Source of the DNA: Macrostomum lignano
Lineage: Eukaryota
Reading direction: 5' to 3'
DNA: 64,000 nucleotides
Assembly (NCBI GenBank): GCA_002269645.1
Contig: NIVC01000181.1
Coordinates: forward strand, 461,693-525,692
In this document: one piece after another, positions 18,417-62,982 of the stretch
Layout of the letters: the number at the start of each line of letters is the position of its first letter
Numbering within the stretch: position 1 is the first letter of the stretch
Notes under the pieces: model-generated
The model's database searches: none
What the model saw: only the letters and a program-made list of their open reading frames with translations
Told to the model about the DNA's origin: nothing
Translations under genes and position numbers: made by a program

Positions 18417-18877
18417 ACTTAAAGCAATATAAAACACTTGATGATTTACTAAAGCCTATTTAAAAGACTGTTATAAATAAATTCACTATCTTTGTAGATT
18501 TCATCAAATATCTTTTTCTTTTTAAATTGTCTTATTAATTTATTTGAATATTTTTAGTTTTGTCATAATTAACTATCTTAACCTCCCAATGTATATATTA
18601 AAAACTAAAACTCTGTCTTTTTTTATAAGCATTACTACAATAAAATGAATGTCCCTACTATTTATAACTCCAAGAAATGTCCCAGTTTGTACTGAATGGT
18701 CCCAAATGGTAATATTTGAAGGTTATTTATCTTAATTAAAATAACGACTAAAACATTATTGCTGGGGCATGGGTCAGGTATAACAATGATTGAGTATTGC
18801 AGACAATAACCTAGGCCTAATCTTTCCCTCATGCCAATCGCTGCATTCCAATTGCATTGGCCAGCGCACCAGAGACA

Positions 18878-26405: not shown

Positions 26406-26994
26406 GAAGCGAAGCGAGTAGATTAGCAATCCGTTTTGTAGTGTTAGAATCGAGCTTTTTATTGTATATGGCCCATATTAGAGAATTTGGGCTTTTTATC
26501 GTTTTCGTGAAATTCGAAGGAATATCATTTCAGTAAAGAAGTTTTTGTCTCAAAAAGCAAATGTATGCATTCGATAGTCTATGGTACATAGGGATGTTGG
26601 ATCGTATCGTACGCAGTCCAAAATGATTTAGAGTTCCCTCGCGTCGCGTTCAAGCAAAAACTAATAAAGTTGAAGTTGATCGCAGATGAGCAAAGAGCAA
26701 TACATGATATTCCTTCATCCATGTTTCACAGGGATGCAAGCCTTGACCATAGAAAAACAAGAGATTTCAACAGACAAAGATGGATATGGCAGGTGAAGTA
26801 TTAATTTAGCAAGCAGAGCTTCACCCCGAACAGCTTAAACGGCGAAGATATTATCAGAATATATATATATCGGTTTCGATTTCAACATGTACAGCCCCAA
26901 TTTCCTAATCGGTTTCTCTATAGAACTATAGACCCCATTTTCAGCCTACAGACCCCAGGACCACATAAACAACCTATAGAACACGACTGTGAGC

Positions 26995-30099: not shown

Positions 30100-34984
<4,885 letters not shown>

Positions 34985-38345: not shown

Positions 38346-40822
38346 TCAATTTTTGCAAACAGGGAAATCCCTATTGCGTGTATTGGATTAAATGCTGAAA
38401 ACTCATAGATATACACTTTAGAATAAAGTCAAATTATTTTATTGCACTTTATTTCTTTGACCCTTATTATTAAAAGCATTAGACCTACTATTTTTCAATA
38501 TATTTATCCTGATTGTACCTATGTCTTTGGCCAGTCTATGCCTGGATCTACTTAGCTAATAGCTACCCATGTATATGTATTTACTAGAAAAGTAGTAAGT
38601 AAGAAGGGCAACATACATACTACATTTAAAAAAAAGTAGGCCTACACTAGATGCCATCTACAGTTTTATAACTTTTTCTTATAAGAGGAAAACAAGATAT
38701 GATAGGGCCTATTTAGGAAGTTTTATAGAAGATTTGGAAATTAAATAAGATTTGGGTCATTGGATCATAGGCTCATTATTATAAATATAACAAACATCAT
38801 TTTTTAAATTATTGCTTTTTTCAATATTTGTTTAAGCCTTATAATTCTTAAAAACCATTATATGACCTTAAATAAAATAGAACCATTCTAGGCCTATCAA
38901 ACTATTTATTTTATCTATACATAAAATAGTTCTATATCTATGAGCATAGGCTTATAGTACAATAAGATAAACCAGGGACCTGCCCTGGCTACATTAACAT
39001 ACACAAGTTCTTAGTTCTAGTCCAAATTGAAATATTTATTGTAACTTTTTTATACTTCTAGCAGTCCTATTCTAGGTTTAGTTCAAAGTACTAGCTATAG
39101 TGATGTCGTTACTGCAATGCTGATTTATTGAAGTTTTGCCAGAAACAAAATTAACACAAATGTTGCAAAGCAAAATACAATTGCCAAGAAAGAATGAGAA
39201 GTGTAGAAAACAGTGACTTGCTGTTGCTATAATATTTTGTGCGTGACTAGAGTCGAGAAAGAAAGCTAATAGCTTGCGGGAGCGGCTGAGCCATCCAGGC
39301 TAAGCGCTCTATGGTCACAGGGCTCGTACCTCGTGGAGTCGTGATGAGCCTATATAATCTTATTATCGTTTATCGTCCCAAAGTTAAATTTACTCTCGAT
39401 TTACTCAATGTCTTGTACATAGATAAACAAATAGGAAGTTAGATGAAACAATTTTTTCTCTCTATCCTTGGGCCTGTTGCGACAAAAGCTAACTGCTTCT
39501 ATTATTTTTTATTCTCAAGTCGTCTGACTCGAACTGTTGCTACAAAAGCCGATCTGTCTTATTCAGCAACGAGAATGTCAAATGTAATGTGAATTATGGG
39601 CACAAATGGCCATCAGCTTAATCGCCTGAAAAATCAGCGCACTGCGACAGCTCGGGGTGACTTTCGATCCTTGACTTTAATCTCTAGGCCGCTTCTACAT
39701 GTACCGATGATCAGATCGAGGGGTTGTGTACATGTAGGCCTACACAGCGTCTTGACCAGGCCCGAAGAGCACCTCGCAGTCAATTAGATTGTGATCACAC
39801 CTGATGCAGGCTACTCTTAGTAGCCTGAGCTTCCAGCTACTCAGATTCTCTTATCATCTCAGGCGAGCAGAGAAGTGCTTGGCACTCCATGCGCACCTCT
39901 GCGAGGCCTAAAAACGCGACTCACTGGATAAAGAGCAACAAAGAGCGTAATAAGCTGCGAGCTGTCCAGCACCACCTGCTAGTCAGGCCTACAGCTTTAT
40001 TGAAAGTTAGAAAAGAAGATAACAAAAGAGTAAGCTACGCCAAACCGCGCACTCTCACGTCACACGCACACTACTGCGCTAACTGCGCTACACCAGAGAG
40101 TATACTGTGGCGCTACACTGTTTCGCACAGGCGCGCCTTTCCCGCTACTTTGCTAGCTCCGTCCGTGCGAGACCACCAGGCTCCTGAGTGACCAACTACA
40201 GCAGCTTTGGTGAATTAAATGGCTTAGACAACTAAATATGCCAATATGGCAATGTGATGAGGACGCACTTTTTCCCAAATCCCGCGCTAGCACATGGGCT
40301 CTAAACTTACTCGCCTACTAACAGTGGGCAGTGGGCATTTTTATCCTTTTTCTGCGAATTTTCATAGAATCTATACTAGATATAATGTCTGGCCATACTA
40401 GTAGTCATAATAACATAGGCGCAGCTTTTTGGGTCATAAATCATCGCTTTCGAAGCTGATCTGACAGCCACCTGCGCCTCACTCAGTGTTAAAGCGGGCG
40501 CCAGATGGTCTGAGAGGATGCGGGCGGTAGCTTTTTTTCTCATCATTTTGACAGGCCATCAAGATTTATGAGGTCAGAGCCTATTGTTCGGGTTCACTCA
40601 AGCGTGTGACAGCTTTGACAGCTATGCGTTTTACCCCTAAAAGTACCTTGGGATTAGCGATTAGCGATTTCTCTTCATTATCTTCACTTTCTATTTAATA
40701 AGAGCTTTCTAATGTATATTTTTTCATTAATTTCTGTCAATCCTATGCGAAAAGTCATAAATCATTTTGTTGCGATTTTGAGTGATTTATGGCCGCACCT
40801 GTCATCTTTTTACGACCCTGTG

Positions 40823-43800
40823 ACTACTAAGGGATTCCGTAAGGCTTGATTTTGGAGGTGAGGTGGGTGTCAACCCTCCTCGCCTCTCATTGGCTGGCGC
40901 CCCGATCACTAGGTGATCGATACCCGTATCGATATCGGCGACTCGAACCCGCGACCCTCCCCAGCCGCAGGCGCACCTACCGATATTAGATCCCAATAAA
41001 TCAATCAGATCCCAAATCAATCAGATCCCAAATCAATCAGATCCCAAGCGCACCCTCCCGAGCCGCAGGCGCCCATGCAGCAGGCGCCCATGCCGCAGGC
41101 ACCCCGAGTGTACACTCTCCCGATATGTGTGTACACCGATATGTAGTCATCGATACGGGCCTCTTCCCCTCTCTCACCTACATCTCAACTAGCGAAATCG
41201 AACCCAGGTCGCGCCCATACTAGGACACTACACGGTTGTGGGGTATAGGGAGCGAGAAGTTTTAACCCCGATGCTGACGCAGCCCTGCACACTGAGCGTG
41301 TACGGGCAGAGGGTGGGTGGAAAGAGATGTGAATAACACAGCCTGCTGCAGGAGCCGGATAGAGAGGCGCATGCTAGGACAGAGAGGTAGTGTGAGTCAC
41401 ACACACACCCCACAGAGAAAGCCATACAGAGGATAGAGAGCTCCCTCCCCAGTTGCAGGGGACAGAGAGGCAGGCAGGGTATGCAGGGGCATGCGAACCG
41501 TCAAGGGGCCACGCGAGGATAGAGTGGAGGAGCAGAGATGTGTTTGGACAGAGAGCCAGCCACGTGTGCGTAGTGTGAGGGAACAGAAACATATGGAGCA
41601 GGAGGGAGATAGGAAGCAAACGCGCAGGGTAAGGGAGCCATGCAGCAGGGAGCAGTGTACAGTGAGACACGGGCAGGGGTGGAGCCGTGCGTGGACAGAG
41701 CTGAACGGCACGGTCAGCTGCAGGAATAGGATGATAGAGAGGCGCGGAGGGGGACAGAGAGCAGTGTGCAGGGTAGGCAGCCACGCAGGCTGGGGAACAG
41801 AGAGGCGCGTGTCAGCCAGTTACAGCCCGGGACAGAGAAGTATGAAGGGGGACCTGGGACAGAGAAGTATGAAGGGGGCCTGGGACAGAGTTGCGAGCAA
41901 GGCACAGAGAGAGGTAGGGTCCGGTAGCTATGTATAGGCAGGGACCCACGCGAGGGCAGGACAGGGCATGCAAGGCATGCAAATTACATGCAAGGGCAGT
42001 GAGGTGTGCGCGGAGGGAGACAGAGAGCAGTGTGTAGGGGTAGGTAACAGCAAACTTTAGTAGAGGCGCGTGCGGGGACGGAGAAACCAGTCTGAGCGTA
42101 CAGAGACGTTACAGAGAGGTACACAAACAGAGACCAAAGCGGGCAGAGCACGTGTAGGGACAGAGACGTGAGGGAGAATAGACCAAAACACGCTATGTAT
42201 TTTCAAAAGTTGGTTTTAGTGCAGCATATTTAATAGCGGGTAGTATATTAGTATGTACATAGTAGGTATAATGGTAGTAATAATAGTAAGTATATTAGCC
42301 CAAAAGGTAGGCTAAAACAGGCTAAACTGTGTGTACGCATCCTCATCACCCCACAAGCCCCCTCTCCCGCCAGACTCACTCTTCCATACCCTCCTGTATT
42401 GCTGTATGAAGGAAAATATAGTGTAAAAATACAGATCTTAACCGTCAGACCGCTGAAATCAGGGCACACTAGAGGGGTTTCGGGGTCTGCATGCTCTATG
42501 TAAGCTGTTTCAATTATGTTTTGAAAAAACTAGGGGCTTAAATACAACGTTTTATTCAAAAAGTAGGTTATTTTAATGAAATAGCTGACACAATCATTGT
42601 CGAGAGTAGAAATTTTTATAAGAAACCAGGCATTTTAGCAAAAATAAACCTTCAAACCACATAAAATTGAATAAAAAGCAGACATTTTCAATTATAAACC
42701 GCAAGTATTTTAATAGAAAAGTAAGCAAACAAGGCACAAAACCAGCAAATTTTACCTTTTTATTTTAATGTTACTGATAAGGTAGAGAGTAGAAACTTGT
42801 GAGCTGTACGGAGTTAGAAAGTATTAACCATTATGTATCGTATGAATTATTAGTTCAGTACCAGCCATTGGTCAAGCGAGCATTTATGAAGTTATTACGA
42901 GTGATGAAGGGATAGAGAGCTATATACAGGAAGACAGTATCCTTCTAAACCACCACGAACAGATTGCTAATAGAGATAAGCTTTGTCTGTGTGCAGTATG
43001 AGTAAGCGAAGGCGGGGCAAATACTTTTCCACATGCCGGACAGAACAGTATTGTGCTAGGATTTCTCTCGAAATCGCGGTACGTTACTAGTTTTTATCAC
43101 ACCATCCAGATGCGTCAACTAGTCAGCAGTAGTCATTTATATGTTATTAGAACTTACAAACCCAGGTCAAGTAAATATTACAAAGAGTATATTACGTACA
43201 CACGCAAACTCCGAATACCAAGCCATACTAGTCTACTTGCAGTGCTCCTGGAGGGAAGGGACGGCGGGGTGTACATCCGGCAGGGTGGGCGTCCAGCGAG
43301 TGTACATCTGACAGGATGGGTGTTCAGCAAGTGTACATCTGACAGGGTGGGCGTTCAGCAAGTGTACCTTCAGCGTCGAGTAGGTGTACACCCGTCAGTG
43401 GGAACTCAGCCCCTCCCACCAATGTCGTGTGCATGCGGTTAGTCAGTATAGTGGTGGGGTAGACGGTGCAGGAAGGAAACCCAGATGCTGACGCTACCCT
43501 GTACAGCGAGCAACCAACCCTCCTGTAGCAGGAGGGGGACAGAGAGTGCGTGGAGGCAGTAGGAGATAGAGGACGCTACCCGGCATGTCGCAGCACGCGG
43601 CGCGGGACAGAGAGGCAGTGTGTAAGTCACCCCGCGGAGGGACAGAGAGCTACCCTGGCAGGAGGCGCGGGACAGAGAGGCGGTGAATCACACCCCACGG
43701 AGAGAGCCGTACAACGAGCTTCCCCACCCGAGTCCGGTAAATATTGCAGAGTATTACGTGCACACGCCAGCCCTGAATACCAAGCCATACTAGTCTACCT

Positions 43801-46800
43801 GCAGTGCTCCCAGAGGGAAGGGATGGTCAGGAGTTACACACCAAGAATGCATTCATACAAAGAGTACACAACTCGAGCCTAGACACCAAGTCACAGTCTA
43901 CTTACAGTAGAGATGGTAGATTAATAGCAAGATTATATTACAATTAGACCTCCCTAGCACATGAGGAGTGAAATTCAATAATAATTGAATTCAATAACAA
44001 TACAACATTTAGACGTAGTAATTTAATTACAAAATACCACTAACACTGAGCCAACGAATTGTAGGTTACAAAGGAGTTGCCACTCATATGGAAAGCCAGT
44101 ATAATGCAGGTGTATATTATTAAAACATAGACAAAAACGATGCAGACGTATATACACACTATTGATTTTGTACATGTACATTTCGGCATATTACCACACA
44201 TCGCGGGCACATATTATATATCGGGGGATAGGTTAAAATACACACATCGTAGATGTAGAAGCAGACACAATGCAGGAAAATTATGATACGAGTGTACATA
44301 TTAGTGCGTAAAAGTATCATATTATGACACCCTGTAGCACATATTGACATAATGCAGGGGAAAATATTGACAGAAATAGTACACAATTGTAGAGGTAACA
44401 ACCCGCCAACTAGTAAGGACATCCAGCACTTGTTCAGGTTTTTATTATTTCGAGACGAGTGTCATGCCCCCGCAAGAGATCTTATCAGAAATTTGTTGAA
44501 CTCCACTGCAACTCTCCCCAGAGCCTCCAAATGTGAGTTTTTAACCAGGGTCGAGTACAAAGGACCCGCCCACTCTTAACCCCAAGGGGTGATCGTAGCG
44601 GAGACCAAGTACAGTGCGGACGGAGAGGGGTAACAGAAAGCGCTGCATCAGACCGCAGGGCTGCATTCCTCCCCCGAGGTAGGCGCGTCAGCTCCCACTC
44701 CTCATTTAACCATCAAGTAAACTAAAGAAGTCAAGCAGAAAGCCTTACAATCACCCGCAGCCAGCACAAGTAAGAGTACTTTCCACTAGAGAACCATAGT
44801 GCAAGATTCGCGAGCCAAGTTGAAGAAGCACACCAAATTACACTAAAGACATATGTATTAAAAAGCATACCGGCACCTCTACAAAAACACAGTATGTACC
44901 GATTAAAGTTGCTTTTGGTGCAGTGTATTTAATAAAAAGCAGGTACCTAACACAAAAGTAGGCATCAATGCAGTACACGGGCTAAACTGTATTTACAAAC
45001 GCAGGGCAACGAACTACACACAATGTAGCGCATAGACATAATTGTACGCATAAATGTACGCAATTTCCGGCATATAGGACCAAATGTACGCAAATGTACA
45101 CAATGTACACAAACACACACACACACAGGCGCATCCTGCAGCGCATCCTGCAGCACCGATCGCCGCAGGCGATGGCGCCATCGGCAGGAAGCTTTTGCTG
45201 TGAATACGCCTGAGTGTGTGTGTTTGTGTACATTGTGTACATTTGCGTACATTTGGTCCTATATGCCGGAAATTGCGTACATTTATGCGTACAATTATGT
45301 CTATGCGCTACATTGTGTGTAGTTCGTTGCCCTGCGTTTGTAAATACAGTTTAGCCCGTGTACTGCATTGATGCCTACTTTTGTGTTAGGTACCTGCTTT
45401 TTATTAAATACACTGCACCAAAAGCAACTTTAATCGGTACATACTGTGTTTTTGTAGAGGTGCCGGTATGCTTTTTAATACATATGTCTTTAGTGTAATT
45501 TGGTGTGCTTCTTCAACTTGGCTCGCGAATCTTGCACTATGGTTCTCTAGTGGAAAGTACTCTTACTTGTGCTGGCTGCGGGTGATTGTAAGGCTTTCTG
45601 CTTGACTTCTTTAGTTTACTTGATGGTTAAATGAGGAGTGGGAGCTGACGCGCCTACCTCGGGGAGGAATGCAGCCCTGCGGTCTGATGCAGCGCTTTCT
45701 GTTACCCCTCTCCGTCCGCACTGTACTTGGTCTCCGCTACGATCACCCCTTGGGGTTAAGAGTGGGCGGGTCCTTTGTACTCGACCCTGGGTTAAAAACT
45801 CACATTTGGAGGCTCTGGGGAGAGTTGCAGTGGAGTTCAACAAATTTCTGATAAGATCTCTTGCGGGGGCATGACACTCGTCTCGAAATAATAAAAACCT
45901 GAACAAGTGCTGGATGTCCTTACTAGTTGGCGGTTGTTACCTCTACAATTGTGTACTATTTCTGTCAATATTTTCCCCTGCATTATGTCAATATGTGCTA
46001 CAGGGTGTCATAATATGATACTTTTACGCACTAATATGTACACTCGTATCATAATTTTCCTGCATTGTGTCTGCTTCTACATCTACGATGTGTGTATTTT
46101 AACCTATCCCCCGATATATAATATGTGCCCGCGATGTGTGGTAATATGCCGAAATGTACATGTACAAAACAATAGTGTGTATATACGTCTGCATCGTTTT
46201 TGTCTATGTTTTAATAATATACACCTGCATTATACTGGCTTTCCATATGAGTGGCAACTCCTTTGTAACCTACAATTCGTTGGCTCAGTGTTAGTGGTAT
46301 TTTGTAATTAAATTACTACGTCTAAATGTTGTATTGTTATTGAATTCAATTATTATTGAATTTCACTCCTCATGTGCTAGGGAGGTCTAATTGTAATATA
46401 ATCTTGCTATTAATCTACCATCTCTACTGTAAGTAGACTGTGACTTGGTGTCTGGCTCGAGTTGTGTACTCTTTGTATGAATGCATTCTTGGTGTGTAAC
46501 TCCTGACCATCCCTTCCCTCTGGGAGCACTGCAGGTAGACTAGTATGGCTTGGTATTCAGGGCTGGCGTGTGCACGTAATACTCTGTAATATTTACCGGA
46601 CTCGGGTGGGGAAGCTCGTTGTACGGCTCTCTCCGTGGGGTGTGATTCACCGCCTCTCTGTCCCGCGCCTCCTGCCAGGGTAGCTCTCTGTCCCTCCGCG
46701 GGGTGACTTACACACTGCCTCTCTGTCCCGCGCCGCGTGCTGCGACATGCCGGGTAGCGTCCTCTATCTCCTACTGCCTCCACGCACTCTCTGTCCCCCT

Positions 46801-49510
46801 CCTGCTACAGGAGGGTGGTTGCTCGCTGTACAGGGTAGCGTCAGCATCTGGGTTTCCTTCCTGCACCGTCTACCCCACCACTATACTGACTAACCGCATG
46901 CACACGACATTGGTGGGAGGGGCTGAGTTCCCACTGACGGGTGTACACCTACTCGACGCTGAAGGTACACTTGCTGAACGCCCACCCTGTCAGATGTACA
47001 CTTGCTGAACACCCATCCTGTCAGATGTACACTCGCTGGACGCCCACCCTGCCGGATGTACACCCCGCCGTCCCTTCCCTCCAGGAGCACTGCAAGTAGA
47101 CTAGTATGGCTTGGTATTCGGAGTTGGCGTGTGTACGTAATATACTCTTTGTAATATTTACTTGACCTGGGTTTGTAAGTTCTAATAACATATAAATGAC
47201 TACTGCTGACTAGTTGACGCATCTGGATGGTGTGATAAAAACTAGTAACGTACCGCGATTTCGAGAGAAATCCTAGCACAATACTGTTCTGTCCGGCATG
47301 TGGAAAAGTATTTGCCCCGCCTTCGCTTACTCATACTGCACACAGACAAAGCTTATCTCTATTAGCAATCTGTTCGTGGTGGTTTAGAAGGATACTGTCT
47401 TCCTGTATATAGCTCTCTATCCCTTCATCACTCGTAATAACTTCATAAATGCTCGCTTGACCAATGGCTGGTACTGAACTAATAATTCATACGATACATA
47501 ATGGTTAATACTTTCTAACTCCGTACAGCTCACAAGTTTCTACTCTCTACCTTATCAGTAACATTAAAATAAAAAGGTAAAATTTGCTGGTTTTGTGCCT
47601 TGTTTGCTTACTTTTCTATTAAAATACTTGCGGTTTATAATTGAAAATGTCTGCTTTTTATTCAATTTTATGTGGTTTGAAGGTTTATTTTTGCTAAAAT
47701 GCCTGGTTTCTTATAAAAATTTCTACTCTCGACAATGATTGTGTCAGCTATTTCATTAAAATAACCTACTTTTTGAATAAAACGTTGTATTTAAGCCCCT
47801 AGTTTTTTCAAAACATAATTGAAACAGCTTACATAGAGCATGCAGACCCCGAAACCCCTCTAGTGTGCCCTGATTTCAGCGGTCTGACGGTTAAGATCTG
47901 TATTTTTACACTATATTTTCCTTCATACAGCAATACAGGAGGGTATGGAAGAGTGAGTCTGGCGGGAGAGGGGGCTTGTGGGGTGATGAGGATGCGTACA
48001 CACAGTTTAGCCTGTTTTAGCCTACCTTTTGGGCTAATATACTTACTATTATTACTACCATTATACCTACTATGTACATACTAATATACTACCCGCTATT
48101 AAATATGCTGCACTAAAACCAACTTTTGAAAATACATAGCGTGTTTTGGTCTATTCTCCCTCACGTCTCTGTCCCTACACGTGCTCTGCCCGCTTTGGTC
48201 TCTGTTTGTGTACCTCTCTGTAACGTCTCTGTACGCTCAGACTGGTTTCTCCGTCCCCGCACGCGCCTCTACTAAAGTTTGCTGTTACCTACCCCTACAC
48301 ACTGCTCTCTGTCTCCCTCCGCGCACACCTCACTGCCCTTGCATGTAATTTGCATGCCTTGCATGCCCTGTCCTGCCCTCGCGTGGGTCCCTGCCTATAC
48401 ATAGCTACCGGACCCTACCTCTCTCTGTGCCTTGCTCGCAACTCTGTCCCAGGCCCCCCTTCATACTTCTCTGTCCCAGGTCCCCCTTCATACTTCTCTG
48501 TCCCGGGCTGTAACTGGCTGACACGCGCCTCTCTGTTCCCCAGCCTGCGTGGCTGCCTACCCTGCACACTGCTCTCTGTCCCCCTCCGCGCCTCTCTATC
48601 ATCCTATTCCTGCAGCTGACCGTGCCGTTCAGCTCTGTCCACGCACGGCTCCACCCCTGCCCGTGTCTCACTGTACACTGCTCCCTGCTGCATGGCTCCC
48701 TTACCCTGCGCGTTTGCTTCCTATCTCCCTCCTGCTCCATATGTTTCTGTTCCCTCACACTACGCACACGTGGCTGGCTCTCTGTCCAAACACATCTCTG
48801 CTCCTCCACTCTATCCTCGCGTGGCCCCTTGACGGTTCGCATGCCCCTGCATACCCTGCCTGCCTCTCTGTCCCCTGCAACTGGGGAGGGAGCTCTCTAT
48901 CCTCTGTATGGCTTTCTCTGTGGGGTGTGTGTGTGACTCACACTACCTCTCTGTCCTAGCATGCGCCTCTCTATCCGGCTCCTGCAGCAGGCTGTGTTAT
49001 TCACATCTCTTTCCACCCACCCTCTGCCCGTACACGCTCAGTGTGCAGGGCTGCGTCAGCATCGGGGTTAAAACTTCTCGCTCCCTATACCCCACAACCG
49101 TGTAGTGTCCTAGTATGGGCGCGACCTGGGTTCGATTTCGCTAGTTGAGATGTAGGTGAGAGAGGGGAAGAGGCCCGTATCGATGACTACATATCGGTGT
49201 ACACACATATCGGGAGAGTGTACACTCGGGGTGCCTGCGGCATGGGCGCCTGCTGCATGGGCGCCTGCGGCTCGGGAGGGTGCGCTTGGGATCTGATTGA
49301 TTTGGGATCTGATTGATTTGGGATCTGATTGATTTATTGGGATCTAATATCGGTAGGTGCGCCTGCGGCTGGGGAGGGTCGCGGGTTCGAGTCGCCGATA
49401 TCGATACGGGTATCGATCACCTAGTGATCGGGGCGCCAGCCAATGAGAGGCGAGGAGGGTTGACACCCACCTCACCTCCAAAATCAAGCCTTACGGAATC
49501 CCTTAGTAGT
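40823..49510. mobile_element. 8.7-kb palindromic (fold-back) insertion: 4.3-kb inverted arms, 75-bp spacer, ACTACT...AGTAGT termini, 6-bp TSD; Polinton/Maverick-like non-autonomous element
   Basis: Arms 40823-45131 and 45207-49510 are near-identical reverse complements, and mirrored ORFs appear in the ORF track. CCTGTG lies at both 40817-40822 and 49511-49516. Confidence 0.8.
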
Positions 49511-49534
49511 CCTGTGGGAACTGATAGGATCTCT

Positions 49535-49672
49535 CGGTCACGTGATTCTGGGTAGCAACGAGCTTAGCCAATCAGAAAATTCGGCGCTCATTTTAACAAA
49601 ACGGCTCAGCCAATCAGAATCGACGTGTTCCGTTATAACAAACTGCGGTCCAGTTGGCGGCTATTTAAACCG
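49535..49672 (+). promoter_or_regulatory. Pol II promoter-like cluster (CACGTG, two AGCCAATCAG boxes, TATTTAAA), possibly in an LTR or other repeat
   Basis: Two identical CCAAT boxes about 42 bp apart, upstream of a TATA-like box at about 49662; no downstream CDS recognised. Confidence 0.3.
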
Positions 49673-51991
49673 GAGTTTTTGGCCCGCTCGGACAAAAAAC
49701 CCTGCACTTCTTCTTACTTTGGCTCGGGCCCAGCGCGCAACTTCTGGTTCCCGGAGCACGACCGTCGTTTCTTGATCCCCGGATTGCAACTTGCCCCATC
49801 ATCATCAAGGACGAGTCCCCCGGTCGACAGCAGCGAACATCCAGTTAAGAGCATCACCTGCTAGCTAACAGCGAAGATTGTGACAGCATCATCCCGAGTC
49901 TACAGCTGCAGAGCATCGAGCCGATTCGGTCACTGTGGAATACCTGGTCTCCGGCTGTTGAGTTTCTGATTGGTTGGGTGAGAGGCTACCTAGACTTGCT
50001 TGATTGGGTGATCCCTTTTCTGTCCCCTGTTGCAGTAGCTGAATTAGGCGCACACTTTTGCTCATTTTGTTCAGTAGTGCTGTTGCTGAGGCAGGAATCA
50101 TTCAATAATACTGCCAGAGTAGTCTAAGACTCCAATTCAATCTAAAGTGTGAAGTGAATTAAGGAGAAGGTTAAATCTAACAGTTATCTTTGTCGGCTTT
50201 ATTTCTTTGTTCGCCGATGGCTCAGATGAGTAGCTAAGCTAGTAGGCGCCGGTCACAGTAGACCAATGGCAAGGCAGTTCTCAGTCGACCAATCTAACAA
50301 ATCAGTGAGCAAAACTGCCAAAAGTGCAGAATCGGCGCCAGAGATGTACTTTGTGCACTCTAGGGTAGCCAAGCGGCTCGGGTAAATGAATCATGCGGTC
50401 TCTGAAGTTCGAGTTAGCCTATCATCAGCGCTATGAGAGGCTAGTTGGCGCGTTGAAGGCTAAAAGTACATATCTTCGTATTTAGCAATGTAATAGTACA
50501 TGTAGCTACCCCATAGACTCGCCACCGCAAGAATCCCCTGCACAAGTCCCCTCTGTACCTGCATGGCCAACGCGATCTAGTCCCAGCAGTGTCCCTTATC
50601 ATCGGCTATGACTTCGAGATTGACAGCAAAAAGACACTAGTTGGCAGGTAAGTGCAAAGCCCCTTCTAGTCGGAAGCCCGATTTCGAGAGTCCCGGTGTG
50701 GTGAGCCAGGGCGCACGGGCTGGTGGCAGCAAGTTAGTTGATCTGCGGATTAGCTAATCTCTACTTTCAAAATTCTCCCTGCTCGTCTCTCGCTGTCCCT
50801 CTCTTAGCTATAGGACCTAGACTGCTCGCCACACGATCAAGCTACCATGGGGCTGACCATCTGACAGGAGTGGGGGGCCAGGTCTCTAATTGATTTATTT
50901 CTGAGCCTGAGGCCCGAAGGCTTCCCTAACAAGGAGCCCGAAGGTCGAAACCCATCAAATGACAGAAAGGTGCAGCAGGCAGAAAACTATAAGTACAGAG
51001 ACTAAACTCGAAAGGGAAAGGACAGAGAAAATGGGAGAAAAACTAAAAGAAAAAGATTGAAACCATAAATCATGGCATCGTATAGGACAAAGCCAATTAA
51101 CCTTAAACGTTTGCTGAGGAGAGAAAAATTCACACGGCCGGCCGAGCTTGTTGAGCCCGGAGTACGCGCCAACTTGGACCAAAAATAGCTAAAAATAGCA
51201 ACAAAATTGAGAAGTTTGCAATTAAGGGATGGGGAACAGGCCGATGAGGTTAAGCTGAGTGGTTTAAGATTTGAAAGGACAAATTTTTAAAGCGCCGAAA
51301 TAAAAAAATCAAATTTTCAAAACTCCACACGTTCTACTGTACATCTTGTTGAATGGTTCAGCGTACCGATGATGTGCATATACGACTCTATAATAACAAA
51401 TTTGCGAATGTGCAGCGTGCATAGTAAATCCGTTCTATTTAGTTACGGTGGTCAGGTGCTCATTTAAATCAGTTCTGATCAGTTTAATTCGATCGCAATC
51501 GAAAAGAGCTCTAAAATAGATAAATAAATGAGAGCCAAAATCAGCATTCGAAGGGTAAAATAAATATTTAAAACTTTTCTTCCGGTGCATTTCTTCCAGT
51601 CTGGCAACTGTCTGAGGGCTTAATTTATAATGGGACAGATCAACTAGCTACTTACGGCTTGCACCCCCCATGGCCCCAATGCTGGGAATAAATTCGTCCT
51701 CACACGGATGTTCAAGGCTGGACAAACTAAATGAACCAGTAAATAAAATAGAAATTTAACCTTCCGGGTGTTGATTTTGACATTTGACATTTATTTGACA
51801 TTTGTATTTACTGCTATTCATCCAGCGAGCTGGATACGTACTTGAATTCTTTTTTGGTACAATAGTTCGATAAAATTGATAGGCTAAGATAAAATCAAAG
51901 CTCAGAAAAAAATGTATAATATGGTGCATATTTAACGTGGCGAACATATCCTATACGCCAACAAATAGTTTTTATCGATTGCAGAAAACAT

Positions 51992-54900
51992 TCACCAGGC
52001 ATTTCTGCCACCTCCAGGCTTCTTGGCGGTAGAGGTAGCCGCTGGTTTCGTCATTTTCATCTTCTTCTGCCACACTGTACCCACAGCGCCAGGCAAGGTG
52101 TTCGAGGATTCCGTGTCCGCGCTATTGCTGCTGCTCTCCACCGGGCCCGAAGGCTGCTTCTGCTGCGACTCCGGCTGCTCCTTGCCCGCCGTTCCCGGGG
52201 CCAATTTGCTCACAACCGCCTTTAGTACAGTGTCTCGGCGTTTAATAAATCGCATCTTCCATTCCAGCCTCTCCACGTAGCCCTGTCGAGCCGAGCGAAG
52301 CTCCGAGAACAGGACGAATACGAGCTCGAACAGTTCGCAAACGGTGAGTAGTGACATTCCTAGGTAGAGGCCCAGAATGCCGCCAATGTCGGAGAACAGA
52401 TCAAAGAAACGATAGGATTCGAACTCCTCAACAACAGTGCTGAAGGCCTTGTTAGCGCCAAGAGTTACTTGGGCGAAGTTGCTAGCAAATTCGCGCTGCA
52501 CTTTTTCTTCTGTAGTTAAATTGCGCAGGAAGTAGTAGAAGGTGTCTGGCACACTGAGATTTGCCTTCTCCAGCTGGCTGATATGGTATCCAAGGATTGT
52601 GTCCTTACAGTACACAGCCAGGCTATTCAGTGGCCACGAAGCCATGGACACGATTGGTGTGTAGATTTGTTCGCGACAGTTAGGCAGGCACTGCTGCATG
52701 TTGTTGAAAAGTGTACTCTCGCGCAGGATGAAATCGTGCTCGCACTGCGTCCTACGCAAAAACTCGGTGGCGTTGGTTGCCGGGGTGATGTGGTGGCACC
52801 GTGTAGCGTTGATGGACTCCGTGATGTTGTTGTATGGGGGCACAATGCGGCTGCAGAGGCAACCGCAGTTCTTCAAGATGGTGTCCAGAAGAGCTCGATA
52901 CTGGCAGTCCTCCTTGTTCTTGCTGAACGCGATGCGATTCTGATCGGCGTCCTCATAAAAAACAGATCGGTTCGCGGAAACGCACTGCTTCGCATTGCGG
53001 CTCACGTACCTGAAGTTGAGTAAAATGAGCGTTTTTCTTAGGCTAGTCAATTTACTCTCATGCAAGCTTCGGTCTGCTTTGAACCGGATGGAGCCTATAG
53101 CTTCATCCTGCATCCTTCATTTTATCGTCAGAAGCTTCCGATCAATCAGTCTAAGTTGTCGAGTTCAATCGCAAGAAAAGCTTTTTATTACTATTATAGT
53201 ACTTTCAATAGTGATTGGAATATTCCTAAGTCTTCTTGGCGCACTAGATTGAAGGCTAGATTAAGTTTAATGACATTTGCAGGTTAAAAATTTGTTAAAT
53301 TGCGCACTATTTTAAGCAGGCCAATTGTCTCCACGCGACTTAAAAGTTCTTTTTGGACACACCCACCTTAGTCAGACAGCCAGTTGACGCCGGGTTGAAC
53401 TGGAGATGTGTCAGATTGTGTATCCAATAGCAACAGGATTTGTTAAACTAAATCAAACAATGATTTTCGATAAGAAACCTGACCCAAAGTTTCTTCATTT
53501 TACTCCTTTGGTTGAGGCAAAGTGCAGCTGAATTGCATATGGACATATGACTTGATCGAAGCTAGTGACTTGCCAACTATATTGCTGATTAATATTACTG
53601 GATACTCAATTATTTACAACAATGAAGCCAACTTGCATTCAAAAGTTAAGAGATGATGCACGAAAGCAGTCCATGCAGTCCCCATCGATTTTCACTCTCG
53701 CCGCTTTCGTTCGGCTAATTCAGAAAATGCAATTAAAACTTTTTAGCGACTGTCATCTAACAATAGTTAGATGCTGCGGTAGAAAGCGTCTTGATGTGAC
53801 TAATGGCAACCATCACTCCAAAGTTATAATTAAATGGCCACTGTAGGTGTCAGAGCGCCAATTTTTTATTGAGGGACGCCAAAACTGCGCCCGTGGCGCC
53901 AAAACGAGTGTTGAAAGCGCCAATTAAAAATTTCACCACCAATCGGCTGTTATACGTACCTTTGCGCTTTGAAGATCACCATATTGAGCCCTTATACCGA
54001 GCCCTCAGTATATAAAGTTAGTTTAGAATCAAGTCATGCATACATTTTTACTATCCTTGTTTCTATTGACTGAGATCAATAGCTTTGGTTTTATGTTCAA
54101 CGCCAAGACTTGATTGATCGACGAATTAGCTGTCGTCTGGATCATTTTCATCCGAAATGCGTTATTTTGTTTTCGATTCTCAGAAAAGAAGGCTTTTTAG
54201 TAGCTTTTTCAATTAGCTACAGTTTGAAAATTCAAATTGCAGCTGATCGCTTACCTGTACTCCACCATTTCAAAATTAACGTAAGAATGCACCCCCGGCG
54301 AGAGGTTGATGAAGTCCCTGGGGTAATGGTTCTTAGGGCCGTAGAATAGAATGGCGCCGCCAGATTTTGACACGTCATAGTCGCCCTCGTAGGTGATCCC
54401 GGCCGTCAGTCTTTCAAATATCACCATGCTTTTCGGGTTGGTCACTACTGGGTTGTTGTCCGTGAACAGTACCTGGCATGTGATATAAAATAAGGTTTGG
54501 ATGCTGTTTTTAGAATCGTTTTTTACTTATAATTCTAAGCAAGTATACATGCGCGACGAACCAGTTCGAGCAGGAATTTCTCTATGAGCACAGTCTGCTG
54601 GAGAACACTGTCTCTAGGCATAAACCGGAAACAGTTGCCGTACTTGCTGTCCCAGTAGTTCTGAAAGTCCAGATAAGAGCAATTGAACCCTTTGTACAGG
54701 CACCTGACTATGAAGACCTCGCGTCGCTGACCCAGATGCTGCAGCAGCATGGTGGGGCCGACCATGTCCTTGGCGATTTGCACAATCAGCTGATAGTCAG
54801 TGCCGAGACCTTTCAAGTAGGCCAGACCAGCCACAAATCGGGACTCCGTGTACAACTGGGTGTACAGGCTGGGATTCTTCGCCGTGACCATTTCGTAGTA

Positions 54901-55170
54901 GTTGGTTGAGGATATCGGGCTCACCGAGCACACCGTGATGTCAGGCGTCTCGAACTGGATCGCTCCCGGACTGATGCTTGTTGATATCGGGGTTGACAAG
55001 AAGTTGATGATTAGCTGCGCGATGTGATAGCTGAAGCCGGCCATGGCAGCCGCTAGGAACAGCATCCACAGCAGCTTCAGGGGCAGCGAGCGCCTGGCGT
55101 GGATTCGGCCGAATCCGTGAGCGGTGGTTGTTGAGATAAAGTCCGAAATGGTGGGCACGCTTAGCTCCAT
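51992..55170 (-). CDS. DEG/ENaC family sodium channel subunit; exons 55170-54562, 54472-54255, 53009-51992 (about 614 aa)
   Basis: Pre-TM1 TTAHG motif, TM1, PDITVC, YGNCF, Cys-rich thumb (CGCL...C...C...C...C.PNC), TM2 SDIGGILGLYLGMS with the GxS filter; junction phases 0 and 2 are compatible. Confidence 0.92.
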
Positions 55171-56364
55171 GCTGCACAATCTGACAATTCACCCTTCAAG
55201 GATCAAACCTTATTAAGGATCAAAAGTTAACTTTTCTTGAAGATTCAGCCCTGCTATGGTTGCGTGGGTTTAATAAAAAATTAAGCCGATACGAATAGAA
55301 CTAAAATATTGATTAGGAACACACCCTCTGCCGGGTAGGAGTCTCTGCACCAATCAAGGAATTGCGGCGTCCTGAATGCAACCTTCAGAGCCCAATACCG
55401 TTAGCTTTCGTCAAGGTCATTAGGCAGCATCCCTTTTCTATAGTGTTTGATGTCAGTAGTACTTCCAGTACATAAACGTAATTTCATGTGTCAAACATAG
55501 ACTAAACGGATATCAAGGAAGACTACCATGTCACGGACAGCTAAATTGCGACGCTACACCAAACTCTCATAATCTCGACCTTTCCAGACTTCCGAGTTCC
55601 AAATGAAGTTAAGCCTCGTTCGAGATGCACTCACAAGTTTAATCAAGTTTCAGTTTTCCTATCTCTTTAGTGTATGTTTATAGTCTATGGCAAACCCCCA
55701 TTCAGAGCAGTGCAAAACAGCAAATCTGCGAAATCTGTGATAAAAAGCACAACTGTATTTTGAAAGTTGTCGCTCTTCAATGATAACTTTTTCTAACTAT
55801 CTCTCAACAAACTTGTGAAGTCACCTCGAACGAAACCGCTCACGGATGCTTGCTTTATTTGGAATTGGGAAGCAAAAACCATGTCTCTACCAGCGTCCTA
55901 AATGTACTTTTAACTGTCCTTGCTGCATACTTAGAAAGTCCGAACAGGGTGGGCTGCAATAAAGTGCAGTTTGGGTCATAATTACATGCACCTGTAAGAA
56001 GCCCAGCAGGATCACATGAAAAGTTTCAACTGCTGCATGTACATGTATTGTCCTGGAATTGGGGAAAAGCTATAAGCTGAATCGGCCATATGTCACGGAT
56101 CCCATGGAAAACAATTGTTTAAACAAGGCAAATCAGATCCCGTGCAGTTTGTTAGGCTAATTGCAGAGCATTTGCAATTCAAAGAAGCGAATCCACCGTT
56201 CACTCAATTCATTTGTTGATTCAGAAATTCTGAACAGCAAAATCAAACGCTCTGTAAATATGCAGGAGAAGCATCTAGAAAATTCTGAGTACGTGTAATT
56301 CTTACTGTTCGTAGTCTTAGTATTGAATAGTTTATTCAGTGTACCGATTATTAATCCACAGATA

Positions 56365-58350
56365 GGGGCGCCAGTCAACATGTAGGAGACGAGAGGGCGC
56401 CAATCTACATGTACATGTAGGAGATATGTGGGGCGCCAATCTACATGCACATGTAGGAGATGTGTGGGGCGCCAATCTACATGCACATGTAGGAGATGTG
56501 TGGGGCGCCAATCTACATGCACATGTAGGAGATGTGTGGGGCACTAATCTACATGTAGGAGATATGTGGGCCGCCAATCTACATGTAGGAGATGTATGGG
56601 GCGTTAATCTACATGTAGGAGTTGTGTGGGGCGCCAATCTACATGTACATGTAGGAGATATGTGGGGCACTAATCTACATGTAGGAGATATGTGGGGCGC
56701 CAATCTACATGCACATGTAGGAGATGTGTGGGGCGCCAATCTACATGTACATGTAGGAGATATGTGGGGCGCCAATCTACATGTAGGAGATATGTGGGCC
56801 GCCAATCTATATGTAGGAGATGTGTGGGCCGCTAATCTATATGTAGGAGATGTGTGGGCCGCCAATCTACATGTAGGAGATGTGTGGGGCGCCAATCTAC
56901 ATGTAGGAGATGTGTGGGGCGCCAATCTACATGTACATGTAGGAGATATGTGGGGCGCCAATCTACATGTAGGAGATGTGTGGGCCGCCAATCTACATTT
57001 ACATGTAGGAGATGTGTGGGGCGCCAATCTACATGTACATGTAGGTGATATGTGGGGCGCCGATCTATATGTAGGAGATGTGTGGGGCGCCAATCTATGT
57101 GTTTGAGATGTGTGGGGCGCCATCTACATGTACGAGCCGTACATGTAGGAGATGTGTGGGGCGCCAATCTACATGTAGGAGATGTGTGGGCCGCCAATCT
57201 ACATGTAGGAGATGTGTGGGGCGCCAATCTACATGTAGGAGATGTGTGGGGCGCCAATCTACATGTACATGTAGGAGATATGTGGGGCGCCAATCTACAT
57301 GTAGGAGATGTGTGGGGCGCCAATCTACATGTACATGTAGGAGATGTGTGGGGCGCCAATCTACATGTAGGAGATGTGTGGGGCGCCAATCTACATGTAG
57401 GAGATGTGTGGGGCGCCAATCTATATGTAGGAGATGTGTGGGGCGCCAATCTACATGTACATGTAGGAGATATGTGGGGCGCCAATCTACATGTAGGAGA
57501 TATGTGGGGCGCCAATCTACATTTACATGTAGGAGATATGTGGGGCGCCAATCTATGTGTAGGAGATGTGTGGGGCGCCAATCTATATGTAGGAGATGTG
57601 TGGGGCGCCAATCTACATTTACATGTAGGAGATGTGTGGGGCGCCGATCTATATGTAGGAGATGTGTGGGGCGCCAATCTACATGCACATGTAGGAGATG
57701 TGTGGGGCGCCGATCTATATGTAGGAGATGTGTGGGGCGCCAATCTACATGTAGGAAATGTGTGGGGCGCCCATCTACATGTAGGAGATGTGTGGGGCGC
57801 CAATCTATATGTAGGAGATGTGTGGGGCGCCAATCTACATGTACATGTAGGAGATATGTGGGGCGCCAATCTACATGTAGGAGATATGTGGGGCGCCAAT
57901 CTACATGTACATGTAGGAGATATGTGGGGCGCCAATCTACATGTACATGTAGGAGATATGTGGGGCGCCAATCTACATGTAGGAGATATGTGGGGCGCCA
58001 ATCTACATTTACATGTAGGAGATATGTGGGGCGCCAATCTATGTGTAGGAGATGTGTGGGGCGCCAATCTATATGTAGGAGATGTGTGGGGCGCCAATCT
58101 ACATTTACATGTAGGAGATGTGTGGGGCGCTGATCTATATGTAGGAGATGTGTGGGGCGCCAATCTACATGCACATGTAGGAGATGTGTGGGGCGCCGAT
58201 CTATATGTAGGAGATGTGTGGGGCGCCAATCTATATGTAGGAGATGGGGGCGCCAATGTAACTACATGTAGGAGATGGGGGTGCCAATCCACATGTATAT
58301 ATGAGATGGGGGCGCCAATCTACATGTAGGAGATGCGTGGGGCGCCAATC
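56365..58350. repeat. 30/36-bp minisatellite, about 60 units
   Basis: Unit CTACATGTAGGAGATGTGTGGGGCGCCAAT, with 6-bp (TACATG/CACATG) insertion variants. Confidence 0.98.
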
Positions 58351-58519
58351 TGCATGTGTCACTTTCTGATCACAGGCCGGTTTTAATTGAGTCGGCAACT
58401 CAAGGCAAATGATCAATCTATTATAGTAGTCAGGCCGGGTATTTTTGTGATACATACTGCACATGAGTATAGTTGAGTTGCCTATTGCAATTGAAAGAAA
58501 GCTTTTGATTACAACCAAT

Positions 58520-58849
58520 TTATGTAACCAGAAGTTGCAAAATTCCAAATTTTTGCTGGCCTGGCTTACAGGTAAACAAGTTGGTTGAGGATATCGGGCT
58601 CACCGAGCACACCGTGATGTCAGGCGTCTCGAACTGGATCGCTCCCGGACTGATGCTTGTTGATATCGGGGTTGACAAGAAGTTGATGATTAGCTGCGCG
58701 ATGTGATAGCTGAAGCCGGCCATGGCAGCCGCTAGGAACAGCATCCACAGCAGCTTCAGGGGCAGCGAGCGCCTGGCGTGGATTCGGCCGAATCCGTGAG
58801 CGGTGGTTGTTGAGATAAAGTCCGAAATGGTGGGCACGCTTAGCTCCAT
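58520..58849 (-). pseudogene. Truncated duplicate of DEG/ENaC exon 1 (N-terminus plus TM1, then a novel 19-aa tail)
   Basis: Identical to 55170-54901, then reads through the duplication junction to a stop at 58520. Confidence 0.8.
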
Positions 58850-60043
58850 GCTGCACAATCTGACAATTCACCCTTCAAGGATCAAACCTTATTAAGGATC
58901 AAAAGTTAACTTTTCTTGAAGATTCAGCCCTGCTATGGTTGCGTGGGTTTAATAAAAAATTAAGCCGATACGAATAGAACTAAAATATTGATTAGGAACA
59001 CACCCTCTGCCGGGTAGGAGTCTCTGCACCAATCAAGGAATTGCGGCGTCCTGAATGCAACCTTCAGAGCCCAATACCGTTAGCTTTCGTCAAGGTCATT
59101 AGGCAGCATCCCTTTTCTATAGTGTTTGATGTCAGTAGTACTTCCAGTACATAAACGTAATTTCATGTGTCAAACATAGACTAAACGGATATCAAGGAAG
59201 ACTACCATGTCACGGACAGCTAAATTGCGACGCTACACCAAACTCTCATAATCTCGACCTTTCCAGACTTCCGAGTTCCAAATGAAGTTAAGCCTCGTTC
59301 GAGATGCACTCACAAGTTTAATCAAGTTTCAGTTTTCCTATCTCTTTAGTGTATGTTTATAGTCTATGGCAAACCCCCATTCAGAGCAGTGCAAAACAGC
59401 AAATCTGCGAAATCTGTGATAAAAAGCACAACTGTATTTTGAAAGTTGTCGCTCTTCAATGATAACTTTTTCTAACTATCTCTCAACAAACTTGTGAAGT
59501 CACCTCGAACGAAACCGCTCACGGATGCTTGCTTTATTTGGAATTGGGAAGCAAAAACCATGTCTCTACCAGCGTCCTAAATGTACTTTTAACTGTCCTT
59601 GCTGCATACTTAGAAAGTCCGAACAGGGTGGGCTGCAATAAAGTGCAGTTTGGGTCATAATTACATGCACCTGTAAGAAGCCCAGCAGGATCACATGAAA
59701 AGTTTCAACTGCTGCATGTACATGTATTGTCCTGGAATTGGGGAAAAGCTATAAGCTGAATCGGCCATATGTCACGGATCCCATGGAAAACAATTGTTTA
59801 AACAAGGCAAATCAGATCCCGTGCAGTTTGTTAGGCTAATTGCAGAGCATTTGCAATTCAAAGAAGCGAATCCACCGTTCACTCAATTCATTTGTTGATT
59901 CAGAAATTCTGAACAGCAAAATCAAACGCTCTGTAAATATGCAGGAGAAGCATCTAGAAAATTCTGAGTACGTGTAATTCTTACTGTTCGTAGTCTTAGT
60001 ATTGAATAGTTTATTCAGTGTACCGATTATTAATCCACAGATA

Positions 60044-62029
60044 GGGGCGCCAGTCAACATGTAGGAGACGAGAGGGCGCCAATCTACATGTACATGTAGG
60101 AGATATGTGGGGCGCCAATCTACATGCACATGTAGGAGATGTGTGGGGCGCCAATCTACATGCACATGTAGGAGATGTGTGGGGCGCCAATCTACATGCA
60201 CATGTAGGAGATGTGTGGGGCACTAATCTACATGTAGGAGATATGTGGGCCGCCAATCTACATGTAGGAGATGTATGGGGCGTTAATCTACATGTAGGAG
60301 TTGTGTGGGGCGCCAATCTACATGTACATGTAGGAGATATGTGGGGCACTAATCTACATGTAGGAGATATGTGGGGCGCCAATCTACATGCACATGTAGG
60401 AGATGTGTGGGGCGCCAATCTACATGTACATGTAGGAGATATGTGGGGCGCCAATCTACATGTAGGAGATATGTGGGCCGCCAATCTATATGTAGGAGAT
60501 GTGTGGGCCGCTAATCTATATGTAGGAGATGTGTGGGCCGCCAATCTACATGTAGGAGATGTGTGGGGCGCCAATCTACATGTAGGAGATGTGTGGGGCG
60601 CCAATCTACATGTACATGTAGGAGATATGTGGGGCGCCAATCTACATGTAGGAGATGTGTGGGCCGCCAATCTACATTTACATGTAGGAGATGTGTGGGG
60701 CGCCAATCTACATGTACATGTAGGTGATATGTGGGGCGCCGATCTATATGTAGGAGATGTGTGGGGCGCCAATCTATGTGTTTGAGATGTGTGGGGCGCC
60801 ATCTACATGTACGAGCCGTACATGTAGGAGATGTGTGGGGCGCCAATCTACATGTAGGAGATGTGTGGGCCGCCAATCTACATGTAGGAGATGTGTGGGG
60901 CGCCAATCTACATGTAGGAGATGTGTGGGGCGCCAATCTACATGTACATGTAGGAGATATGTGGGGCGCCAATCTACATGTAGGAGATGTGTGGGGCGCC
61001 AATCTACATGTACATGTAGGAGATGTGTGGGGCGCCAATCTACATGTAGGAGATGTGTGGGGCGCCAATCTACATGTAGGAGATGTGTGGGGCGCCAATC
61101 TATATGTAGGAGATGTGTGGGGCGCCAATCTACATGTACATGTAGGAGATATGTGGGGCGCCAATCTACATGTAGGAGATATGTGGGGCGCCAATCTACA
61201 TTTACATGTAGGAGATATGTGGGGCGCCAATCTATGTGTAGGAGATGTGTGGGGCGCCAATCTATATGTAGGAGATGTGTGGGGCGCCAATCTACATTTA
61301 CATGTAGGAGATGTGTGGGGCGCCGATCTATATGTAGGAGATGTGTGGGGCGCCAATCTACATGCACATGTAGGAGATGTGTGGGGCGCCGATCTATATG
61401 TAGGAGATGTGTGGGGCGCCAATCTACATGTAGGAAATGTGTGGGGCGCCCATCTACATGTAGGAGATGTGTGGGGCGCCAATCTATATGTAGGAGATGT
61501 GTGGGGCGCCAATCTACATGTACATGTAGGAGATATGTGGGGCGCCAATCTACATGTAGGAGATATGTGGGGCGCCAATCTACATGTACATGTAGGAGAT
61601 ATGTGGGGCGCCAATCTACATGTACATGTAGGAGATATGTGGGGCGCCAATCTACATGTAGGAGATATGTGGGGCGCCAATCTACATTTACATGTAGGAG
61701 ATATGTGGGGCGCCAATCTATGTGTAGGAGATGTGTGGGGCGCCAATCTATATGTAGGAGATGTGTGGGGCGCCAATCTACATTTACATGTAGGAGATGT
61801 GTGGGGCGCTGATCTATATGTAGGAGATGTGTGGGGCGCCAATCTACATGCACATGTAGGAGATGTGTGGGGCGCCGATCTATATGTAGGAGATGTGTGG
61901 GGCGCCAATCTATATGTAGGAGATGGGGGCGCCAATGTAACTACATGTAGGAGATGGGGGTGCCAATCCACATGTATATATGAGATGGGGGCGCCAATCT
62001 ACATGTAGGAGATGCGTGGGGCGCCAATC
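60044..62029. repeat. Second copy of the 30/36-bp minisatellite
   Basis: Same variant order as the first copy. Confidence 0.98.
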
Positions 62030-62982
62030 TGCATGTGTCACTTTCTGATCACAGGCCGGTTTTAATTGAGTCGGCAACTCAAGGCAAATGATCAATCTAT
62101 TATAGTAGTCAGGCCGGGTATTTTTGTGATACATACTGCACATGAGTATAGTTGAGTTGCCTATTGCAATTGAAAGAAAGCTTTTGATTACAACCAATTT
62201 ATGTAACCAGAAGTTGCAAAATTCCAAATTTTTGCTGGCCTGGCTTACAGGTAAACAATTGTTTGTTTGAAAATTCCTGCTATTATATAATTGAGTCTCT
62301 GCTGAAACCTAGACCATCGCTGCAAAATTTCAGTCATAAATGTTTTCTCTAATGAATTTAGAAACCCAATATTCAAAATATGATTTTATTCATAAAACCT
62401 TTTTAGCATATATAGGATTTAATACAGTTCCTTGATACTTCCTTTGATACATGTACTTTGAGCCTCTTCGTTTAACAATGAAAATTAAATGAAGATTTAA
62501 TGGGGCAAATTAAATGCCCCAAAAACTCTAAAATATGCAAAGTTGTACTTAAAGTAACAGCGGAATGGAGGGCTCTGGAAGGCTCTGGAAGCTAGGCTCT
62601 GAAGGCTCGACCCAAGTACAGAATCAACGTACTACATAAGAATGATACATGTAAATTGTAATGTAAATTGCATGTCGGACAAATCGTCTAAAATCCAGCA
62701 AACTTTTTAGCGAGTTTGGACTTTCTCGGGTAAATAGAGAATTTAATTATTAACTGTCCGTAGGGTCCGAAGCTCAAATTAACTTAGATAAGAATATAGT
62801 AGATTCTTGAGAGGTGAAATCGACCTATAAGTGTCATATTGTGCATATCTTAGGAGGATTCCTTGATCAGGCAAATACACCATTTTACCTCCTATTTTGA
62901 ACAAAGTCTTGTTCAAAAGAAACAAGCAGAACTTCAATTCAAACACTTTAAGAAATATCAGCCCTTGCGGAAATTCAATTCA

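Follow-up and report, generated by a model that had tools for sequence, protein, structure and literature searches.

The closest mechanistic precedent for the element described here is found in Kluyveromyces, where the protein-primed linear plasmid pGKL1 gives rise to the hairpin plasmid F2 and the inverted dimer F1: a replicon cut to one end, doubled into a palindrome that has the same type of origin at either terminus, and dependent on a helper. Snap-back or copy-back defective virus genomes likewise have complementary ends of nearly full length, lack genes and need a helper, and foldback transposons such as Galileo and FB have very long inverted repeats and often no genes. To our knowledge, the replication and virion formation of Polintons have been modelled from sequence and hardly observed. 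According to PMC8097293, intact vertebrate Mavericks are intronless, measure 12.7-24.6 kb, carry two gene modules on one element and end in (AGT)2, (AG)3 or (AC)3A. We analyzed a window of 64,000 nucleotides from Macrostomum lignano (GenBank assembly GCA_002269645.1, contig NIVC01000181.1, positions 461,693 to 525,692 of the forward strand), which contains an 8.7-kb palindrome without coding genes. With a probability of about 0.75, we interpret it as a snap-back satellite that is copied by the polymerase of one coding element with the same ends, unit A, and inserted by the integrase of another, unit B.

Unlike the F1 and F2 plasmids, which arose by deletion in the laboratory, reside in the cytoplasm and are colinear with a single plasmid end, the M. 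lignano palindrome is nuclear and integrating, has a mosaic arm and belongs to a long-lived family. It differs from snap-back defective genomes by its fixation in the germ line, where many copies carry duplications of the integrase type, and from foldback transposons, which have cut-and-paste transposases and other duplication lengths, in that the families with its ends encode a protein-primed DNA polymerase (pPolB) or an rve integrase and a capsid, not a transposase. With Polintons/Mavericks (adintoviruses) it shares a 6-bp target site duplication (TSD), long terminal inverted repeats and a short terminal tandem repeat (PMC8097293, PMC8502044), and its partner units carry a pPolB (PF03175), an rve integrase, an ATPase and a predicted double-jelly-roll capsid. 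In contrast to them, the palindrome has no genes and consists entirely of inverted repeat; its ACTACTA ends are not among the three motifs listed for vertebrates in PMC8097293; the partner genes lie on two units of ~10 kb, not on a single element of 13-25 kb; and the unit A polymerase gene is spliced, while intact vertebrate elements are reported as intronless in the same text. The bidnaviruses also have two units with matching termini, one of which encodes a pPolB, but they are single-stranded, parvovirus-like and devoid of the integrase and double-jelly-roll module (PMC8502044).

According to what is accessible of PMC8502044, nearly all large contigs with a protease and PolB also have an integrase and ATPase, virion modules shift between PolB classes, and the term "bipartite" is applied only to bidnaviruses. 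The available text of PMC3014272 reports no non-autonomous copies in the anole, and that of PMC11414722 describes polymerase and repeats without an integrase at 10 loci in C. elegans. A palindromic satellite or split element is not described in the accessible parts of 10.1101/2023.08.22.554363, PMC6431247, PMC8504770 and 10.64898/2026.10.13.758929. Literature searches, whose coverage stopped short of supplements, the founding Polinton papers and Repbase, returned no description of a palindromic satellite or split Polinton. Repbase holds non-autonomous Polintons, which may lower the novelty of the element. The parts of the palindrome are ordinary, and its arrangement is unusual.

Self-BLAST of the window gave a single inverted match with long arms (40822-49511, 99.3% identity), confirming the 4.3-kb arms and 75-bp spacer described by an initial annotation that had been made from the sequence alone. 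The element itself occupies 40823-49510 (8,688 bp) and has the termini ACTACTAAGG...CCTTAGTAGT; an alignment of its left and right arms over 4.3 kb contains 2 substitutions and 7 gap positions (Table 1). It lies within a host repeat with TG...CA ends, for which the search returned 1,177 candidates and which is flanked by 4-bp duplications in the three copies read. In 4 out of 4 paralogous copies of this repeat that were read, the flanks are joined with a single CCTGTG, and the empty junction is present in contigs of 4 out of 4 sequencing runs. CCTGTG is therefore a true target duplication, and the ACTACTA-type ends and 6-bp TSD proposed in the initial annotation are real. Also as proposed there, no polymerase, integrase or capsid was detected inside the palindrome: among 7 open reading frames (ORFs) of at least 100 amino acids in the left arm and spacer, the 3 that were scanned had no Pfam match, and a tblastn comparison of the palindrome with 13 partner proteins gave a best E value of only 0.47. 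An Rfam scan of the arm was equally without a match. The arm sequence is present in 20 of the 24 listed runs, from 7 studies; none of the runs listed with the arm is an RNA data set, which has no bearing on expression.

Table 1. Features of the palindrome and its target repeat, in window coordinates
Feature	Position	Strand	Basis
Left TSD copy, CCTGTG	40817..40822	.	Self-match and sequence; single at empty paralogous sites
Left arm, 4.3 kb, non-coding	40823..45131	+	Self-match, arm alignment, variant counts
Terminal ACTACTA, common to units A and B; predicted protein-primed origin	40823..40829	+	Terminal-pattern searches
Hypervariable modular sub-terminal segment, 20 nucleotides; variants common to palindromes, A and B	40830..40849	+	Variant tally
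Part resembling the unit A (polymerase) terminal repeat	40823..41155	+	97% over first 123 nucleotides, 72-81% after
Two blocks, 32 and 26 nucleotides, 96-97% to the unit B (capsid/integrase) terminal repeat	41266..41402	+	
Internal 420-nucleotide block resembling the inner part of the unit B terminal repeat	43265..43686	+	69-76%
Unpaired spacer, 75 bp; central 25-mer with 50 assembly-wide matches	45132..45206	.	
Right arm, reverse complement of the left arm	45207..49510	-	
Right TSD copy, CCTGTG	49511..49516	.	Single at empty paralogous sites
Target: 2-kb high-copy host repeat, solo-LTR-like (LTR, long terminal repeat), cut by the insertion into 40255-40822 and 49511-50957	40255..50957	.	

The palindrome is, almost beyond doubt, a member of a real mobile family. 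The central 25-mer of the spacer has 50 matches in the assembly, which include some sites assembled twice (e.g., C2536/C2243; C and L numbers are our labels for loci and stretches), versus 0 for the control. Copies with different 6-bp TSDs had been expected from the initial annotation and were found: in two sets of family loci, with one locus of the first and nine of the second left out because an end or both lay outside the stretch, an exact TSD is present in 18 of 19 and 9 of 11 cases, and the hexamers differ from site to site. The misses are explained by a boundary offset at C212, where the TSD is exact once the end of the element is set correctly, by a third ACT at one end at C1201, and by C3499, an error-bearing second assembly of the C1575 site. 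An extra ACT considered at C212 was rejected, the letters belonging to the duplication. Over 42 elements, TSD position 2 is mainly A/T and position 3 mainly C/T, with the mirrored preference at positions 4 and 5. Complete family members are 8.1-9.4 kb long in 26 out of 28 cases, and internal deletions and one-armed derivatives are frequent. A one-armed 5.1-kb copy at C1283 was considered as the non-palindromic parent and rejected: it retains the first bases of the second arm past the spacer and thus reads as a deletion product. The family members at C201 and C843 have inverted duplications that take in flanking DNA, by rearrangement or local mis-assembly.

In ten arm ORFs of at least 90 amino acids, which partly overlap, the shared variants comprise 57 synonymous, 137 non-synonymous and 4 stop changes. 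The corresponding counts for the unit A polymerase exon are 134, 44 and 0. The two patterns are opposite: the arm is non-coding.

The looser form of the terminal-pattern search gave 228 matches, and 58 were obtained for the second type. Unit A is 8.8-9.8 kb long (median, 9.5 kb), with terminal repeats of ~0.65-1.3 kb, ACTACTA ends and an exact 6-bp duplication in 14 out of 14 copies. The polymerase matches PF03175 (pPolB), is 97-99% identical to database proteins of M. lignano, and is under strong purifying selection in its exon. A second, PC4-like ORF has a weak match, and a 44%-identical relative of it gives an E value of 6e-6. Polymerase and PC4-like genes are present in all 14 A units, together with 0 of the 10 genes of unit B; no integrase or capsid was found in unit A. 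The polymerase exons are joined at five GT..AG junctions in contigs from three runs of three studies, contigs of a fourth run having no coverage of the gene. Spliceosomal introns of this gene are seen at C3939 (L073:4045-8751) and in other A units, and a loose end hints at a sixth junction. A second polymerase-only subfamily, 62% identical to the A exon and ending in ACTACTAT, occurs at C566 (L091/L092) and C157 (L115-L117); at C157, several of its copies are clustered in both orientations. At C271 (L095/L096), an AGT-ended Polinton with a pX-like ORF is nested in an A unit. The C506/C2506/C166 family was considered as a helper and rejected, being this AGT-ended Polinton.

Unit B is ~10.5 kb long and has 650-bp terminal repeats, ACTACTA ends and a 6-bp duplication in 5 out of 5 copies with two ends read. 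Its integrase matches rve (PF00665), and its ATPase has a Walker-A motif and weak Pfam matches only. By its modelled fold, a 427-amino-acid protein is a double-jelly-roll capsid: the alignment-based model has a pLDDT of 96, a single-sequence fold (pLDDT 35) having been useless, and resembles the major capsid proteins of PBCV-1, iridovirus and mavirus with E values down to 2e-18. This protein is 99-100% identical across 15 uninterrupted copies. Neither a match to the A polymerase exon nor an ORF of more than 443 amino acids was found in any of 22 stretches over 11 B-type loci, of which 8 are close copies and 3 belong to a subfamily whose capsid is 88% identical; for some of these loci, the stretches do not reach both ends. 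Pfam had no match for the capsid or for the ORFs of 286, 145, 226, 129 and 114 amino acids, nothing significant emerged from sequence searches of the PDB, and no relatives of the capsid were found in viral and metagenome contigs. The names "protease" and "minor capsid" for unit B ORFs are putative and follow motif and gene order. Gypsy- and mariner-type ORFs each lie inside just one ACTACTA-ended element and were read as nested insertions. A Fic-domain ORF adjoins the left repeat of unit B at C150 (L148:8384-9187). An element of the B subfamily at C1313:243594-257956 (L179/L180) has a 3.66-kb inverted repeat that holds the capsid, the 145-amino-acid ORF and the ATPase at both ends; judging by this element, copy-back seems to lengthen repeats in the partner elements too.

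Units A and B are thus a pair with complementary gene sets on separate elements and matching termini. The coding partner anticipated by the initial annotation exists in so far as pPolB, integrase, ATPase and predicted capsid were all found with the same ends; in place of one autonomous element, they are split over two complementary units of ~10 kb.

Several observations link the palindrome to both units, whose termini it shares in the same genome. The first 32 nucleotides follow one plan in palindromes, A and B. Nucleotides 8-27 occur in 47 variants among 85 loci, of which palindromes have 10 in common with A and 3 with B, A has 6 in common with B, and 3 occur in all three classes; palindromes, A and B draw on a common pool of terminal variants that have been shuffled. 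This segment is built of three short modules that are shuffled combinatorially and swapped between classes; the two ends of a B unit are often unlike, those of a palindrome rarely. The arm is A-like to about nucleotide 330 and B-like at nucleotides 444-475, 555-580 and 2443-2864. At C428 and C4851, arm nucleotides 1-4147 are fused at the identical base to the body of the A polymerase gene; the flanks of the two chimeras differ, and that at C428 was read with its own 6-bp duplication. The initial annotation had the arm arise as one end of a linear element copied back on itself. This origin does not hold in its simple form: because the mosaic arm combines end sequences of A and B with a larger part for which the loci fetched contain no parent, it is not a plain copy-back of one end.

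In 12 out of 17 copies, the two arms are separated by 0-3 substitutions per 4.1 kb (for C176, C261 and C660, pairwise BLAST values were taken, MAFFT having overstated the distance). Distances between copies are larger: 7.3 per kb from the window copy to its closest relative, and a median of 11.8 per kb from the window copy to the others. Exceptions are C1009 and C1575, with 11 and 8 differences, and C660, the arms of which look recombinant. Since the arms are alike within a copy and copies have diverged from each other, new mutations must reach both arms. Two mismatches, located 21 and 62 bp away from the spacer, are common to copies at 7 separate insertion sites, indicating that the molecule is copied through its center.

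The palindrome very likely depends on A and B, and its replication by fold-back is probable. As in adenovirus-type strand displacement, the pPolB of unit A would prime at the ACTACTA ends and displace a strand, which in the case of the satellite would snap into a near-perfect 4.3-kb hairpin and at once restore a duplex origin. Such rapid restoration would give the satellite an edge in replication, and the hairpin step would equalize the arms, with mismatches away from the loop corrected or overwritten. Copying through the loop would then restore the 8.8-kb duplex, to be inserted by the integrase of unit B. More speculatively, the doubled form may be favored because its size fits the ~9-10.5 kb of A and B, allowing it to be packaged in the B capsid; we regard packaging as a tentative proposal. 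An equally tentative, wider picture is that the animal harbors a bipartite, Polinton-like double-stranded DNA virus that is active and integrates, accompanied by a heritable snap-back defective-interfering genome with a length tuned to a small capsid, the three classes racing by means of a combinatorial 20-nucleotide code inside the origin. The non-coding palindrome is not an autonomous Polinton; in its behavior, it resembles a helper-dependent fold-back genome.

A number of points weigh against this interpretation. Free molecules, whether linear, hairpin or protein-capped, were not observed in the data, which consist of integrated copies and short-read contigs, and none of the short-read contigs spans the spacer into both arms. 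The likeness of arms within a copy could in part be due to chromosomal gene conversion or assembly polishing. Folding of the spacer is no better than that of shuffled sequences (z = -0.74). For about 3 kb of the arm, the non-palindromic loci fetched contain nothing similar, so that the parent of the fold-back was not found, and one of the three variants common to all classes is represented in B by a hybrid end, that at C150. Duplications also flank short elements with ACTACTA ends (3.2, 3.4 and 5.1 kb); length is therefore not an absolute limit. Finally, the genome also holds complete AGT-ended Polintons, which have all genes and could act as helpers in trans.

Some of these points would suit a giant foldback-type transposon that is cut and pasted by the B integrase and never copied by a polymerase, with chromosomal gene conversion keeping its arms alike. 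Integrated copies alone have been seen, an integrase would suffice for the 6-bp duplication and the shared ends, and long palindromes are able to convert in place. We nevertheless consider this explanation unlikely, because the arm end is nearest to the repeat of the polymerase unit, terminal variants were exchanged between three unlinked classes, and a palindrome-polymerase chimera moved as one unit. In addition, one copy (a single case) carries a third ACT at just one of its two ends, a pattern that slide-back priming would produce.

Slightly less probable still is that the palindrome is a functional third segment, such as a decoy, a regulator or the source of a non-coding RNA, under virus or host selection, rather than a parasite. 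The identical ends, the similar size, a copy number about that of A or B, and the blocks of both partners' repeats in the arm are consistent with such a role, as is the occurrence of over half of the arm's sequence words in two runs with spliced polymerase contigs. The arm is, however, without coding constraint or an Rfam match, and internal deletions and one-armed derivatives occur often.

It could also be argued that complete AGT-ended Polintons move the satellite as well as A and B, which would then be deletion derivatives of two sorts. The assembly has at least four complete elements that end in AGTAGTA and encode polymerase and integrase; two of them were checked by eye and have 6-bp duplications. 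Loci with polymerase and repeats in the absence of an integrase are known from C. elegans (PMC11414722). Against this, their ends share nothing with the arm, the B proteins are just 27-35% identical to theirs, and the large A polymerase exon has no match among them. Unit A is moreover spliced and under strong purifying selection, and the B capsid is 99-100% identical in 15 intact copies, all of which renders the proposal improbable. A fold-back artefact of long reads or assembly is the least credible alternative, very improbable in our view, and the initial annotation had already argued against it: long-read chimeras are known to produce palindromes, C201 and C843 have flank-including inverted duplications in this assembly, and the spacer and both arms occur in no single contig, yet the identical spacer is found at 50 places, the duplication differs per site, empty sites exist, and the arm-specific mismatches inherited at 7 sites cannot be generated by mirror-image read errors.

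If the palindrome is a snap-back satellite, its spread in the absence of genes would mark the cis signals that are enough for copying, integration and perhaps packaging, and the equalization of its arms would document the fold-back step expected under the model. The split helper shows replication genes and capsid-integrase genes as two modules, each existing as a genome in its own right.

Other features were found in the window. At 18821-26477 there are exons from two genes, one for a serine/threonine phosphatase and one for an acyltransferase, and at 30100-34984 there are ORFs that resemble those of non-LTR retrotransposons and include reverse transcriptase and RNase H. Positions 54900-62265 hold a 3.68-kb tandem duplication (99.95%) in which a minisatellite rich in TACATGTA lies together with a segment of an amiloride-sensitive channel gene; it is either a recent duplication or an assembly error. 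A 132-bp inverted repeat (99%) at 62983-63114 and 63870-64000 reaches past the end of the window.

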